From IMG/VR virus record IMGVR_UViG_3300023211_000126, positions 211-64,210 of that record: a stretch of DNA of 64,000 nucleotides; one strand, given 5' to 3'. Both the position numbers and the translations under genes were made by a program. This document shows positions 12,911 through 19,693 of the stretch, in pieces. The notes beneath the pieces are model-generated. The model was not told the origin of the DNA. It saw nothing but the letters and a program-made list of their open reading frames with translations, and searched no databases. Every line of letters begins with the position of its first letter. The stretch's first letter is position 1. The DNA comes from a virus.

Positions 12911-13279
12911 GTGGTCTGGAAAAAGAAATTACAGGAGCTGCAAAAGGTGTCTGGAGTCGCTGAGGCCCAAGAATGGGCGCGCACCCTGGTTAACCGCGAA
13001 GCACGCGGGCCGGGCGACACGAAGAACGCCATGCGGCGCATCGAGCAGCGCTACGGGATCGATTATTCGACGCTCTATTCGCTTCGTTATCGACCGCCGA
13101 AGGAAATCTTCGTCAGCGTTTATATGCGTATCCGTGCCGCGTACATGGCTGAATGTGACCGCCAACAGAAGCTTTTGAAGCATGAGCGAACAATCACGGA
13201 AGCGAAAGGCATCGTTACCTCGGCTCTGGTTGCGGCGAGCGATGCTTTGGATCGCGAGGATGATGGGGGGCAATGCTGA
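12911..13279 (+). CDS. Phage regulatory protein (CII-position HTH-like)
   Basis: [35 protein letters not shown]. Confidence 0.65.
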
Positions 13280-13560
13280 TGCTTAACGACACTACGTCAC
13301 TTAGTGACCATTCCGATGTTACGGACAGCGGTGTTGCTTCCGAAGAGCTGAAGCAATTCGTCGAGCGCGTCGAGCGTTTACATGAAGAACGTAAAGCAAT
13401 CGCGGACGACATCAAGGAAGTCTATGCCGAAATGAAGGGCAGGGGCTTCGATACCAAAGTAGTCAAGCACATTATCAAGCTTCGTGCGCAGGATCATGCG
13501 GAGCGCATGGAATTCGAAGCGATCCTCGATCTCTACATGACAGCGTTGAATATGGCATGA
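13273..13560 (+). CDS. gapR: GapR-like nucleoid-associated protein (DUF2312)
   Basis: [47 protein letters not shown]...[11 protein letters not shown]. Confidence 0.92.
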
Positions 13561-14015
13561 CCGATGCTACGCACGTGCACGCGCACGAAAAATCCATTAC
13601 CTTCTTCGTCCCCGGCGATCCAATACCCTTCGCGCGAGCCGGGGCCAACGGTGCGCGGCGGTTCACGCCGAAGAAGCAACGCAATGGGATGGCTGTCGCT
13701 CGGTTTTGTGCTGAGCGCGCTATGTCGGAAGCAGGCCGGAAACCTTTCGAAGGGCCGGTGCGTCTCACGGTGCGCGCAACCTTCATGATCCCGGCGTCGT
13801 GGCCAAAGAAGAAACAGGCTGCAGCGCATTGGAAGTGCTCGAAGCCCGACCTCGATAACGTCGTCAAGCTCATCAAGGACGCCGTGAAATCGGTCGTCTG
13901 GATCGATGATGCACAGGTGTCCAAGCTTGATGCCGAGAAGATCTATACCCGTGCGTTGCCGGTCGGTGTGAGCGTCAGCGTCGAAGAGCTGCAGCCGGAA
14001 GGTATTATGCTATGA
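13557..14015 (+). CDS. rusA: RusA-family Holliday junction resolvase
   Basis: [14 protein letters not shown]...WIDDAQV. Confidence 0.92.
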
Positions 14016-14629
14016 GCGGCTGGAACGACGCGCGCGTCGATACACTAAAAATGCTCTGGGCTGAAGGCTTATCCGCCTCGCAGATCGCGACTGAACTCGG
14101 TAGCGGCATCACGCGCAACGCGGTCATCGGCAAAGTGCATCGGCTTGGCCTCTCCGGTCGCGTGAAAGTCGCGAAGCAGCCGGATCCTCAAAAATCAAAG
14201 TTACCTCTGCCCGCGCTGACACGCAGGGTCCGGGACGACGGACTGCGCAAACAAGCCTTGGATCGGTACGCGCAAAAAGTAGGAGGTGGCGCAAGCACAC
14301 CTATGGCAGAGGAGCACGTAGCCAGCCGATCCGAGGAAGTCGTTACGGCGCCGGGCGGGGAACACAACGATGCTGACCACATCGCCCCGTCCGGCCCGAA
14401 CGTCGATATTCTCGGTTTGACACCGACAAGCTGCCGTTGGCCGCTCGGGGCCATGCGTGACCGGCCGCCATATCGGTTCTGCGGCGCGCCTACAGAGCCC
14501 GACAAGCCCTACTGCGAGCATCACGCCAAGATGGCGCGCTCAGGCGAGCAGGGCAGGCGCGCGGCTCCGAAATCAGATCCGGCAAAACGCGAACTTTATC
14601 GCATTACTTGCGAGGCGGTGGCAGGATGA
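14012..14629 (+). CDS. gcrA: GcrA cell-cycle regulator homolog
   Basis: W...RVDTLKMLWAEGLSASQIA.ELG..TRNAVIGKVHRLGL and C-terminal CRWPLG...FCG...YCEHH. Confidence 0.93.
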   Translation: MSGWNDARVDTLKMLWAEGLSASQIATELGSGITRNAVIGKVHRLGLSGRVKVAKQPDPQKSKLPLPALTRRVRDDGLRKQALDRYAQKVGGGASTPMAEEHVASRSEEVVTAPGGEHNDADHIAPSGPNVDILGLTPTSCRWPLGAMRDRPPYRFCGAPTEPDKPYCEHHAKMARSGEQGRRAAPKSDPAKRELYRITCEAVAG

Positions 14630-17275: not shown

Positions 17276-18037
17276 ATGAGAGTCCTTCATATTGAAAATG
17301 ACGACAATGTTCGTCAATCGATTGACCTCATGCTTCGCGCTGAGGAGATGGTTTGTGAGAGCGCAAACCTCGGTGAGGAAGGTATTGAGCTCGCAGCGAT
17401 CTATGATTTTGACATCATCCTGCTTGAGATAGAACTGCCGGATATGTCAGGCTTCGCTGTCCTCCAGCAGATGCGTACCGTCAAGAAGATCAAGACTCCC
17501 GTTCTTGTCGTCAGCGGCCTCGCTGGGATGAGCGACAAGATCAAGGCGCTTGTGCTCGGTGCCGATGATTATCTGACAAAGCCCTTTCACAAAGATGAGC
17601 TTGCCGCTCGTATCCGCGCGATTGTTCGTCGTTCGAAAGGCCATGCGCAATCCGTCATCGCGACAGGCGATCTCGTCGTCAATATCAATCAAAACACCGT
17701 TGAGATTGGCGGGAAAGCCGTTCATCTGACCCGTAAAGAATATCAGATGTTGGAGCTTCTCTCCCTCCGCAAAGGCAGCGTGATCACAAAGGAAATGTTC
17801 CTCAACTATCTCTATGGTGGCATGGACGAGCCGGAGCTCAAGATCATCGATGTATTCGTCTGCAAACTGAGAACAAAGCTCGCGGCTGCCAGTAATGGGC
17901 GCAATTACGTCGAAACGGTTTGGGGGCGCGGCTACATGCTACGCGAAAACGGGGATTACATGCCTCGTCGGTCAGGTCGCTTCGTGCCGCCCGTGATTTC
18001 TGTCGATGCCTCTCACGCTCTGGAGGCGAAACAGTGA
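17276..18037 (+). CDS. ctrA: CtrA cell-cycle master regulator homolog with Glu at phospho-acceptor position 51
   Basis: [92 protein letters not shown]; codon 51 (17426-17428) is GAG. Confidence 0.95.
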
Positions 18038-18450
18038 CCACACGCGAGATCCTTCCGAACCGCCGACAGCAGGAATCATTCGACTTCGTTTATTCCGACC
18101 ATTGCTTCACTGGAGCTGTTGGCCTTCATCCGGATGGCAGGATCGGCGAAGTCTTCCTGTCCTGCGAGAAGACGACAAGCCTAATGGAATCTCTCGGCCG
18201 CGACGGTGCCATCCTGATCTCGCTCGCGATCCAACACGGTTGCCCGATCGAGACGATGTGCGGTGCCATCACGCGCGGCGAGAATGATGCGCCGGCAACG
18301 GTGATTGGCGGACTTCTCGATCAACTGAGGGCCGTCGCGGAGGCGCGCAAGCCTGATGATCCGCCGGAAGAGCAGGGCGAGCCAGTAGGCGATGATCCGG
18401 CGCCCGAGAGTGGGGCAGGCGGTGCCATTGTGGAGGTTGCTGCTGAATGA
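18034..18450 (+). CDS. Stand-alone TSCPD-like (class II RNR C-terminal-like) domain protein
   Basis: REILPNRR...DGRIGEVFL...[17 protein letters not shown]-coupled to ctrA. Confidence 0.7.
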
Positions 18451-18656
18451 GCAAGCTCCCTCTCGATCGGCAGCGCCGCGACCTGAAAACAATCCGAAGC
18501 GTCATCGACGGCAGCGCGCCGACGCCGAAACGCGGCGAGCGCGACATCCTGCTCGACGGGATTGCTGCGATCGAAGAGACGCTCGCCTGGTGCGAGACGA
18601 ACAGATCCGACGTCATCGCGTGGCAGGCGACCAAGCGAAATGGGGGCGGAGAGTGA
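18447..18656 (+). CDS. Hypothetical protein
   Basis: Coupled on both sides. Confidence 0.6.
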   Translation: MSKLPLDRQRRDLKTIRSVIDGSAPTPKRGERDILLDGIAAIEETLAWCETNRSDVIAWQATKRNGGGE

Positions 18657-19693
18657 GCGATCTGCGCTTCCTTTCGATTTGCTCTGGTATCGAGGCGTTC
18701 TCCGTCGCCGCTCAGGGCTTGCCATATGAGCCAGTAGGCTTTTGCGAGATCGACCCGCATGCCTCGGCGCTGCTCGCCTATCGCTATCCAGATGTGCCGA
18801 ACTTCGGCGATTTCACCGCAGCCGATTTTTCGAGGATTGGCCGGGTAGACGTTCTCGCCGGCGGGACGCCCTGCCAGGCTTTTTCCGTCGCTGGATCGCG
18901 GCTTTCACTCGCCGATGCGCGCGGCAATCTCACTCTTGCCTTTACGGTTCTCGCACATGAACTTGTTGGATCTCATGGGCTGCAGGTCGCCTTCTGGGAG
19001 AACGTCATCGGCGTCCTCAACACGCCAGACAATGCCTTCGGCTGTTTCCTGGGCGCGCTTGTCGGACACGACAGAGCCATCGATGCGCCTCGCGGGGGAA
19101 AATGGGCAGACGTTGGTATGGTTGCCGGACCACGGGCGCGGGCCGCGTGGAGGGTTTTTAACGCTCAACATTTCGGACTCGCCCAACGACGCCGTCGCGT
19201 GTTTCTTGTCGCAGATTTTGGAGGCAGGGCCGATCCCGCAGAAATACTTTTTGAGTTCCAAAGCCTGCACGGGGATTTTGCGCCGGGCCGCGAAGCGCGG
19301 GAAGATATTGCCGGAACCCTTAGCGCGCGCACTCAAGGCGGTGGCGGACTTGGAACCGACTTCGAATGCGATGGAGGATTAGTCGCGGCTTTCGATGCCC
19401 GGCAGACAGACGTTTGTGTCTATGGCGATATTACCGGCCCTCTGGATACCAAATTTCCTGGAGCATCAATAGCTGACCCATCTGCGACTTGGGCCGTTCG
19501 CCGCCTCACCCCTATTGAGTGCGAGCGACTACAGGGTTTCGATGATAATTACACGCTGATCTCCGAAAACACGCCCGACGGCCATCGCTACAAGCAGCTC
19601 GGCAACTCCTGGGCTGTGCCGAACGTGCGCTGGATCTTGAAACGCATCGCAAACCGCTTGGGTTCGGCTGGAATAATGGAGGCAGCCGAATGA
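18653..19693 (+). CDS. C5-cytosine DNA methyltransferase
   Basis: ICSGIEA (I), GGTPCQAFS (IV), WENV (VI), QRRRRVF (VIII), RRLTPIECERLQGF (IX), YKQLGNS (X). Confidence 0.93.
   Translation: MSDLRFLSICSGIEAFSVAAQGLPYEPVGFCEIDPHASALLAYRYPDVPNFGDFTAADFSRIGRVDVLAGGTPCQAFSVAGSRLSLADARGNLTLAFTVLAHELVGSHGLQVAFWENVIGVLNTPDNAFGCFLGALVGHDRAIDAPRGGKWADVGMVAGPRARAAWRVFNAQHFGLAQRRRRVFLVADFGGRADPAEILFEFQSLHGDFAPGREAREDIAGTLSARTQGGGGLGTDFECDGGLVAAFDARQTDVCVYGDITGPLDTKFPGASIADPSATWAVRRLTPIECERLQGFDDNYTLISENTPDGHRYKQLGNSWAVPNVRWILKRIANRLGSAGIMEAAE
18957..19382 (+). CDS. Alternative-frame ORF nested in the C5 methyltransferase gene (possible second subunit)
   Basis: TLNISDSPNDAVACFLSQILE...KYFLSSKACTGILRRAAKRGKILP; start codon uncertain. 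Confidence 0.55.
   Translation: MNLLDLMGCRSPSGRTSSASSTRQTMPSAVSWARLSDTTEPSMRLAGENGQTLVWLPDHGRGPRGGFLTLNISDSPNDAVACFLSQILEAGPIPQKYFLSSKACTGILRRAAKRGKILPEPLARALKAVADLEPTSNAMED

Follow-up and report, generated by a model that had tools for sequence, protein, structure and literature searches.

A virus-encoded CtrA homolog with glutamate at the phosphorylation site in the early operon of a temperate phage

Why would a temperate phage carry its own copy of the cell-cycle regulator CtrA, and what kind of CtrA would it be? The question is raised by a DNA stretch of 64,000 nucleotides (the window, that is, the whole stretch that was analyzed), which comprises bases 211 to 64210 of the 64,210-bp IMG/VR provirus record IMGVR_UViG_3300023211_000126 (completeness of 100% according to CheckV). 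A sequence-only reading of the window had described a row of seven genes, coding for homologs of GapR, RusA, GcrA, a methylase, CtrA with a D51E exchange, a TSCPD protein, and a C5 methylase, as a cassette for the takeover of the host cell cycle. Our data make us lean, with moderate confidence, toward another interpretation: the genes lie in the early operon of a temperate phage, within a region that appears to be hypervariable; the CtrA copy would be a host-directed regulator that works independently of the phosphorelay; and the regulators would have been stacked there rather than kept as a unit.

The phage-encoded CtrA and its likely target

The ctrA gene (17276 to 18037, + strand) encodes a full-length CtrA homolog of 253 amino acids (phrog_731, E = 1e-56). 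With 349.6 bits, the protein falls 0.4 bits short of the cut-off of 350 of the equivalog model NF045991, of which it covers positions 1 to 223 of 224; the next best NCBIfam family, PmrA, gives 158.5 bits. A receiver domain (PF00072, residues 3 to 114) is followed by a winged-helix domain (Trans_reg_C, PF00486, residues 146 to 222), and this two-domain OmpR-type architecture is shared with cellular CtrA, as exemplified by the structure from Brucella abortus (4QPJ), as is a nearly identical recognition-helix region. Unlike cellular CtrA, the window copy is virus encoded, has asparagine in place of aspartate at position 8 (D8N), and has a diverged receiver and a foreign tail. Compared to a host consensus derived from 42 canonical cellular CtrAs of 233 to 234 amino acids, it is 66% identical in the receiver, 93% in the linker, and 80% in the DNA-binding domain. 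It keeps 85% of the 72 host-invariant columns of the DNA-binding domain and 100% of the 10 host-invariant columns of the linker, and its last ~30 residues have no counterpart in the consensus, whose end reads EERIPA.

The site of phosphorylation itself is altered. Position 51 is a glutamate, as the sequence-only reading had stated, and is aligned to the phospho-acceptor aspartate of the Brucella CtrA receiver structure (4QPJ_C); the surrounding stretch aligns with DIILLDLNLPDMSG of that chain. The acidic pocket reads IENDDN, compared to IEDDSA in 4QPJ_C, and the first aspartate of the pair is lost with the exchange at position 8. Ser80 and Lys102 are retained. The roles that we ascribe here to the acidic Mg2+ pocket, to Ser/Thr80, and to Lys102 are presumably those known from response regulators in general. 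The motif of the alpha4-beta5-alpha5 dimer face is also retained and is invariant across all viral copies. Judged by these residues, the phage CtrA is predicted to be a protein without phosphorylation chemistry (Asp51 to Glu, Asp8 to Asn) that has kept its dimerization surface and a host-like DNA-binding domain. When 5.8 billion protein clusters were searched, the protein turned out to be a singleton. Among the 119 best matches listed, 118 are cellular CtrAs with 59 to 72% local identity in BLASTP, the lowest values belonging to chimeric assemblies, and all of these 118 nearest cellular CtrAs have aspartate at position 51. For CtrAs of the Hyphomicrobiales type, the identity amounts to 65 to 72%.

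The same substitution was built into the laboratory alleles ctrAD51E and D51E-delta3-omega of Caulobacter for independence from phosphorylation. According to the accessible text of that work, CtrAD51E is not phosphorylatable and still activates genes, and in combination with a stabilizing change at the C terminus (D51E-delta3-omega), it gives rise to filamentous, G1-arrested Caulobacter cells (PMC2714070). In Rhodobacter, D51E serves as a phosphomimetic, as described in the accessible part of the respective paper (PMC6363796).

Full binding sites for CtrA are essentially missing from the phage. The CtrA box is TTAA-N7-TTAA. The 64-kb window contains no perfect site of this type, three sites with one mismatch (6.7 expected), and no match to the CtrA half-site 8-mer TTAACCAT. 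In the nine other CtrA-encoding viral records (see below) and the nearest relative of the phage (L091), one perfect site was found in all, compared to six for the reversed control pattern. Since the phage lacks full CtrA boxes, host DNA is a likelier target of the protein than the phage's own genes. Glutamate 51, asparagine 8, the conserved DNA-binding domain, the foreign C terminus, and the lack of CtrA boxes in the phage would all be in keeping with a regulator that is directed at host DNA and does not depend on phosphorylation.

CtrA copies in other viruses

Nine other IMG/VR records (individual sequences are given here by our L numbers) encode CtrA, as found in two scans, one with a single protein and one with an alignment. 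Position 51 is glutamate in six of the ten viral copies (window, L003, L005, L006, L009, and L099), aspartate in L004 and L007, and alanine in L008; L010 breaks off at the end of its contig, where it is degenerate. The host-type acidic pair is intact only in L007, and most viral CtrAs carry C-terminal extensions that bring them to a total of 250 to 278 amino acids, compared to 233 in the hosts. Two of the records have direct terminal repeats, and ctrA therefore lies inside complete virus genomes. A search of 50,697 deposited phage records gave no close full-length match to the phage CtrA; the best match had 69% identity over half of the query and came from a 4-kb fragment, and the remaining ones, which were full length, had at most 35%.

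The records do not represent one kind of phage. L004, L005, L006, L008, L009, and L010 share a replication module with ctrA at its end and form a second phage type; the module has at least two of a DUF2800 gene, an Enc34-type single-strand-binding protein gene, and an open reading frame (ORF) of ~680 amino acids, the latter matching a family-A polymerase in L008, and a VRR-NUC gene is present in L004. An integrase was seen in L004, L005, L006, and L008, and there ctrA is located ~1 to 5 kb upstream of it. The CtrAs of this second type have C-terminal extensions of 40 to 50 amino acids, with SPPLAPV/SPPLVP-like tails in L008, L006, and the metagenome contig L113. L007 has an SU10-type portal and a gcrA gene immediately upstream of ctrA. 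In the nine other records, Pfam GapR was found in none and Pfam GcrA in one, plus one match of 26.5 bits below the cut-off. The full trio of gcrA, ctrA, and the DUF2312 gene gapR, for which the sequence-only reading had proposed a synteny survey, is thus present in the window alone among the 10 CtrA-encoding IMG/VR records.

Viral CtrA copies are nearer to a cellular CtrA (50 to 74% identity) than to another viral copy (46 to 67%), with the exceptions of L099 compared to L003 and L006 and L009 compared to L005. In quick trees, the window CtrA fell among the canonical host CtrAs, apart from L003, L005, L006, L008, L009, and L099, with poor support for the relevant branches, and an approximately unbiased (AU) test did not reject a single clade for all seven non-aspartate viral copies (p = 0.508). 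Given the weak branches and the outcome of the AU test, convergence is possible but not shown, and an independent origin of glutamate 51 in the window was not retained as a conclusion.

The distribution of glutamate 51 was also followed outside the viral records. Among 128 representatives of CtrA-like clusters (50% identity) that cover position 51, 95 have aspartate and 10 glutamate. A degenerate DNA pattern for the E51 motif, which is strict and misses diverged copies, gave five stretches in genome contigs, one of them CtrA-like and from a metagenome-assembled genome (MAG) of Bauldia, and seven in metagenome contigs, of which five were CtrA-like, including the L006 contig and, again, the Bauldia-type copy. 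The copy in the Bauldia sp. MAG (L103, 1512 to 2180) is an otherwise canonical CtrA with an IEDD pocket and glutamate 51, located beside another ORF with a receiver domain; it could be a natural variant, a paralog, or an assembly error.

The early-right operon and its variable genes

The provirus is a temperate, contractile-tailed phage. To the left, it has a minus-strand operon (4422 to 8310) with genes for RecE-like and RecT-like proteins and a Dda-like helicase, and to the right of the early genes, it continues from terminase, portal, protease, and major head genes to sheath, tape-measure, baseplate, and fiber genes and a gene for a peptidoglycan-binding lysis protein. A gene for an S24 CI/LexA-like repressor (10299 to 11093, − strand; PF00717, E = 8.7e-7; phrog_4, transcriptional repressor, E = 3.4e-16) is divergent from the stretch from 12911 to 23116 (+ strand), which is the early-right (lytic) operon. 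From this arrangement of repressor, leftward recombination operon, and rightward head and tail genes, it follows that the cell-cycle genes belong to the early-right, lytic operon of a temperate phage. The host is probably a Hyphomicrobiales-like alphaproteobacterium, as is weakly suggested by the nearest named CtrAs, which come from Microvirga, Methylobacterium, and Rhodoblastus.

All seven genes named by the sequence-only reading were recovered on the + strand by Pfam, NCBIfam, or phrog matches, and its description of a mostly ATGA/GTGA-coupled early operon ahead of dnaB and an initiator gene agrees with the junction sequences, the divergent repressor gene upstream, and the dnaB and DUF1376 genes downstream. 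Inspection of the junctions revealed a single run from 12911 to 23116 that is translationally coupled almost throughout: start and stop codons overlap as ATGA or GTGA at 13557, 14012, 14626, 18034, 18447, 18653, 19690, and 21944 and as TGATG at 21165. The sole intergenic gap comprises the 43 nucleotides before ctrA and carries a GAGG Shine-Dalgarno sequence. Two genes had been passed over, a small ORF of 69 amino acids (18447 to 18656, + strand) and a gene for a phrog_15779 protein that precedes the DUF1376 gene.

The operon begins with an uncharacterized early gene (12911 to 13279, + strand; phrog_35370, E = 6.8e-27), the stop of which overlaps the start of gapR. The GapR (DUF2312) homolog of 95 amino acids (13273 to 13560, + strand; PF10073, 108.1 bits, E = 1.7e-31; phrog_4212) scored 111.2 bits with NF010247, above the cut-off of 94, and 96.4 bits with the Caulobacter-type equivalog NF052541, under the cut-off of 140. 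It is followed by an ATGA-coupled gene for a RusA Holliday-junction resolvase (13557 to 14015, + strand; phrog_140; PF05866, E = 2.2e-25, 90.1 bits with a cut-off of 22.8, profile positions 2 to 123 of 124) and by the gene for the GcrA homolog of 205 amino acids (14012 to 14629, + strand; PF07750, 126.7 bits with a cut-off of 26.9). The GcrA homolog is far under the cut-off of 280 of the equivalog NF050816 (106.2 bits). In structure-sequence alignments, it includes the DNA-binding domain at the N terminus as well as the sigma70-interacting region at the C terminus: residues 3 to 69 and 126 to 188 align with Caulobacter GcrA in 7YE1_G (E = 3.9e-24 for the whole chain), the sigma70-interacting residues 131 to 189 align with 5YIX_B (E = 1.5e-4), and there is a further alignment with the Caulobacter GcrA structure 5YIU_A.

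GANTC sites are depleted two- to fourfold in the window, with 94 sites compared to 389 expected from a first-order model and 203 from a third-order model. We take this depletion to fit the life of a provirus in a CcrM-methylating host. Under the third-order model, CCWGG (0.63) and GGWCC (0.71) are likewise low over the whole window. No GANTC sites were found upstream of the early-right or packaging operons. GANTC as a cue for GcrA in phage promoters was rejected, since the share of intergenic sites (13 of 94) shows no enrichment over the share of intergenic DNA (10.5% of the window; p = 0.18).

The methylase domain that the sequence-only reading had assigned to the next gene is present, but the gene starts at 14626 (ATGA) and not at 14608, and its product is a fusion of 868 amino acids (14626 to 17232, + strand). 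The N-terminal half is helicase-like (phrog_16, "DNA helicase," E = 1.9e-105), and the N6/N4 methylase domain (PF01555, 55.5 bits) occupies residues ~505 to 848 of the 874-amino-acid ORF. To judge from its sequence, this domain is of the beta-class N6/N4 type and not an ortholog of CcrM. The fusion scored 39.9 bits with the CcrM equivalog NF050803 (GANTC adenine methylase; cut-off of 830), with a match limited to a C-terminal motif (residues 796 to 856); the CcrM structure 6PBD aligns with residues 778 to 845 only, and methylases in the PDB match just the last ~90 residues.

Downstream of ctrA, the start of the ORF described as a TSCPD gene is corrected to 18034 (18034 to 18450, + strand; 138 amino acids; GTGA-coupled to ctrA), and with 16.5 bits (E = 0.01) and a cut-off of 22.8 for PF12637, the assignment of its product as TSCPD-like is weak; there is also a partial match to the C terminus of the B12 ribonucleotide reductase family NF005736 (E = 8.8e-9). 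The 69-amino-acid ORF has no Pfam match; it is ATGA-coupled to the TSCPD-like gene and GTGA-coupled to the C5 methylase gene, with Shine-Dalgarno sequences at the junctions. The C5 cytosine DNA methylase of 346 amino acids (18653 to 19693, + strand) is well supported by PF00145 (E = 1.2e-35, 124 bits with a cut-off of 22) and TIGR00675 (126 bits with a cut-off of 100.65), with its start corrected to 18653, from which the Pfam domain begins at residue 4. Then follow the genes for a DnaB-type replicative helicase (19690 to 21165, + strand; PF03796 and PF00772; phrog_19), for the phrog_15779 protein (21165 to 21947, + strand; E = 9.1e-43), and for a DUF1376 replication protein of the initiator or primosomal type (21944 to 23116, + strand; PF07120, E = 1.1e-10; phrog_22470, "replication protein," E = 4e-50). 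The final early gene ahead of the packaging genes is a candidate for a NusG/RfaH-like antiterminator (23136 to 23918, + strand; PF02357 and KOW; phrog_6386, antiterminator). Its start is probably later than 23136, and its product is likely an antiterminator of the late genes; L091 has a copy with 95% conservation, and a homolog follows ctrA in L007.

Scans of the region from 9300 to 25000 yielded 8 promoter candidates (6.9 expected by chance) and 19 terminator candidates (15.5 expected by chance), no excess in either case, and no promoter-like site before ctrA. An Rfam scan of the window gave no families, no tRNA genes were found in it, and there was no integrase among the ORFs scanned. A divergent promoter region (9877 to 10046) separates the leftward recombination operon from a small rightward ORF; it contains two operator-like direct repeats of 27 nucleotides (9916 to 9942 and 9945 to 9971), promoter-like hexamers on both strands, and a pair of GANTC sites 5 nucleotides apart (9987 and 9992). 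Within the tail-gene region, a gene for an Arc-like repressor (39057 to 39425, − strand) and one for an Ant-type antirepressor (39733 to 40821, + strand) are flanked by a tail assembly chaperone gene and a tape-measure-like gene. At the right end of the provirus are an O-antigen acyltransferase (AT3 and SGNH) moron (59840 to 61750, − strand) and an ATP-dependent DNA ligase gene (61822 to 62796, − strand).

The gene content between repressor and dnaB differs in the relatives of the phage. The nearest one, the 64,769-bp provirus L091, shares RecE, RecT, and Dda and is highly similar in DnaB (98%), NusG (95%), the TSCPD-like protein (92%), DUF1376 (88%), RusA (87%), GapR (81%), and, to a lesser extent, GcrA (66%). 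Between gcrA and the TSCPD-like gene, a protein of 190 amino acids with an NPPY motif and no Pfam match, which by this motif may be a small N6 methylase, replaces the helicase-methylase fusion together with ctrA, and before dnaB, a DUF4942-methyltransferase replaces the C5 methylase. The small ORF is kept (67 amino acids, 10594 to 10797), although the gene next to it differs; the phrog_15779 gene is missing, and DUF1376 directly follows DnaB. A second relative, L115 (DnaB, 91%; GapR, 65%), combines an S24 repressor with unrelated small genes and another C5 methylase; RusA, GcrA, and CtrA were not found in it. A query with DnaB revealed no relatives in genome contigs of species. In an unrelated phage, L117, genes for GcrA, a YfbR-like nucleotidase, GapR, and an N6_N4 methylase stand in a row (5802 to 8932), and gcrA and gapR are thus seen a second time in the company of an adenine-type methylase.

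The helicase-methylase fusion is common, with 469 matching IMG/VR stretches, but a single-sequence tblastn search of the best 80 of these 469 loci, which is insensitive for short divergent proteins, gave GcrA in two, GapR in one, and a full CtrA in none. With cell-cycle genes almost never beside these 80 loci, the fusion was rejected as an anchor of a cassette. In L033, a stand-alone winged helix-turn-helix (wHTH) protein (1033 to 1344) that is 35% identical to residues 133 to 250 of the phage CtrA is encoded directly upstream of a helicase-methylase homolog; the alignment extends into the unusual tail of the phage CtrA and may hint at the source of the tail. The gene swaps among L091, L115, L117, and the helicase-methylase loci speak for a hypervariable accessory region and not for a fixed cassette. 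In our model, the stretch from the repressor to dnaB would be such a region with two methylase slots, and ctrA an accessory gene of slot 1 that is found in this phage only.

Function of the regulators and competing explanations

According to this model, related phages would shuffle three kinds of genes between repressor and dnaB: recombination and replication helpers of the RusA type, methylases in two slots, and captured regulators of the nucleoid and the cell cycle. Upon induction or infection, the phage CtrA would work at host CtrA boxes, partly constitutively and independently of CckA-ChpT, and it may also resist proteolysis. It would then be the natural equivalent of ctrAD51E from the laboratory and, if stable, of D51E-delta3-omega; such a locked CtrA would dampen the initiation of host replication and force on the CtrA regulon of the late cell cycle. 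The phage GcrA would serve as a sigma70 cofactor, the phage GapR would aid topoisomerases and ease the topological stress on fast-replicating DNA, and the methylases would protect or mark phage DNA. The three regulators would be individually useful accessories that were stacked by chance in this phage and do not form a conserved unit. A takeover of the cell cycle by the phage is plausible on these grounds.

Parts of this picture are already in print: phage gcrA, phage gapR, ccrM-like phage methylases, and boxes for host CtrA in phages have all been described in the accessible texts of earlier reports (PMC3556154, PMC12185513, PMC9437464), and the sequence-only reading had rightly called phage gcrA and gapR homologs known. 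Gp222 of phiCbK, which according to a proposal of Gill et al. (2012, PMC3556154) turns on replication functions of the host, is a phage-encoded member of PF07750 like the GcrA of the window; phiCbK is a virulent Caulobacter siphophage, whereas gcrA of the window lies in a temperate early operon beside gapR, methylases, and ctrA, and the accessible text on phiCbK does not mention a phage-encoded CtrA or GapR. The GapR of Erythrobacter phage R34L1 (ORF28) is treated as an auxiliary gene (PMC12185513), and Sinorhizobium phages carry CcrM analogs (cited within PMC9437464). Like these, the genes of the window are nucleoid and cell-cycle genes that alphaproteobacterial phages have captured from their hosts; the accessible reports concern single genes, and the methylases of the window, unlike the CcrM analogs, are apparently not CcrM orthologs. 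"Lytic deferment" (Mascolo et al. 2022, PMC9437464, as far as its text is accessible) also ties alphaproteobacterial phages into the CtrA pathway. Those phages read host CtrA through clustered CtrA boxes, that is, they have the sites and use the host protein, whereas in the window phage and the other CtrA-encoding records, the protein is encoded and full sites are essentially missing. The closest annotated case is gp37 ("ctrA") of RDJL Phi 1 (NC_015466), which is homologous to the DNA-binding domain of CtrA (45% over query residues 121 to 220); similar wHTH genes are present in RDJL Phi 2 and in Paracoccus and Rhodobacter phages. Gp37 has ~151 amino acids and the DNA-binding domain only, in contrast to the full-length window CtrA with its degenerate receiver, and being without a receiver, RDJL-type wHTH proteins would also be independent of phosphorylation. 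A term search of the accessible text of the RDJL Phi 1 genome paper gave no mention of ctrA (PMC3070671). Literature searches of full texts outside subscription journals and supplements gave no description of a phage-encoded full-length CtrA or of a viral glutamate 51.

Several observations weigh against the reading of a host-directed CtrA in a set of stacked regulators. In the systems cited, D51E shows partial activity only, and in combination with asparagine 8, the phage CtrA could be inactive or even inhibitory. That the C terminus may confer resistance to proteolysis derives solely from its difference to the host consensus. The ctrA gene is a singleton that is missing from the closest relative and is, therefore, dispensable for this phage type. 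Glutamate 51 is not exclusive to viruses: it also occurs in two copies of chromosomal appearance, one from the Bauldia MAG (L103/L111) and one from a metagenome, next to an Obg-like ORF (L109). Aspartate 51 is absent from about a quarter of the divergent CtrA-like cluster representatives. As for GcrA, the lack of intergenic enrichment of GANTC is unfavorable, and nothing was found that links the phage GcrA to phage promoters or to a mark set by a phage methylase.

The explanation from which we started, an integrated takeover module, implies joint selection and joint action of GapR, GcrA, CtrA(E51), and the two methylases, which would impose a single host state, with a silenced origin, S-phase and GcrA genes switched on, and a mark for GcrA on the phage DNA. 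It would account for the presence of all genes in one translationally coupled run and for the company that gcrA keeps: an adenine-type methylase comes next in the window and the 190-amino-acid NPPY protein in L091, helicase-methylase homologs lie just downstream of gcrA in L087 and L034, gapR and an N6_N4 methylase accompany it in the unrelated L117, and ctrA adjoins it in L007. However, just one of the 10 CtrA-encoding viral records has the full set, the other nine having no GapR and one clear GcrA; L091 has dropped ctrA and L115 ctrA, gcrA, and rusA with the backbone kept in both; the methylases are swapped nonorthologously at both slots; and the insensitive search at the best 80 helicase-methylase loci recovered hardly any regulators. 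The seven-gene cassette of the sequence-only reading is not supported as a co-selected unit, and we regard an integrated module as unlikely. The altered active site, with both E51 and N8, could also make the phage CtrA a decoy or dominant-negative protein, whose pseudo-receiver lowers host CtrA activity and frees the host origin, either by occupying CtrA boxes without activation, by forming dead heterodimers via the alpha4-beta5-alpha5 face, or by titrating partners. The invariance of the dimer-face motif in all viral copies is in line with this, a replication-competent, S-phase-like host would suit a phage with its own DnaB, and D51E is weaker than phosphorylated CtrA; in the accessible text on Rhodobacter capsulatus, CtrA-D51E bound the ctrA promoter only with low affinity (PMC6363796). 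Since D51E is documented as activating and not as inhibiting in the accessible text on Caulobacter (PMC2714070), and an activator would be expected to conserve the whole DNA-binding domain just as strongly, we have little faith in a decoy as well.

An even smaller chance is given to regulation of the phage's own genes, for example, the late genes, or to lysogenic conversion (expression from the prophage that changes flagella or pili for superinfection exclusion) by the phage CtrA and GcrA. Host CtrA does regulate phage genes via CtrA boxes in other alphaproteobacterial phages (PMC9437464, accessible text), genes with a CtrA-type DNA-binding domain are known from the Roseobacter phage RDJL Phi 1 (gp37) and from Rhodobacter phages, and two GANTC sites (9987 and 9992) lie in the divergent promoter region. 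On the other hand, such self-regulation is difficult to reconcile with the lack of perfect CtrA boxes in the window, where near-matches are below expectation, and with one perfect site across 10 other viral records; furthermore, GANTC is missing upstream of the early-right and packaging operons, and ctrA lies inside a repressor-controlled lytic operon with no promoter-like site of its own found. That ctrA is a neutral hitchhiker, a recently captured host gene in decay with E51 and N8 as losses of function, would agree with its singleton status, its absence from the nearest relative, and the stronger divergence of the receiver compared to the rest of the protein. But the intact frame of 253 amino acids is preceded by a Shine-Dalgarno sequence and coupled to the gene that follows, 85% of the host-invariant DNA-binding columns and 10 of 10 linker columns are kept, and a conservative exchange of aspartate for glutamate recurs in 6 of 10 viral copies in place of random residues, which makes decay highly improbable.

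Along with the reading of a host-directed CtrA among stacked accessory regulators, a broader scenario can be put forward, which we hold doubtful and propose tentatively: alphaproteobacterial viruses may repeatedly keep a CtrA that is freed from the phosphorelay, and perhaps from ClpXP, by glutamate 51 and a degenerate pocket; this CtrA would silence the host origin and force on the late CtrA regulon, including ccrM, and the phage GcrA and methylases would run a private, methylation-coupled sigma70 program.

CtrA is the master cell-cycle regulator of the Alphaproteobacteria, among them symbionts, plant-associated bacteria, and pathogens, and its D51E allele is a textbook tool of the laboratory. 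The presence of glutamate 51 in 6 of 10 viral copies, compared to none of the 118 nearest cellular ones, suggests that phages found the same trick. The published picture would then be inverted: instead of listening to host CtrA via binding sites, the phage supplies a CtrA of its own and lacks the sites. Furthermore, the relatives of the phage show how such regulators may travel, namely, as accessory genes in an apparently hypervariable early region, beside swappable methylases.

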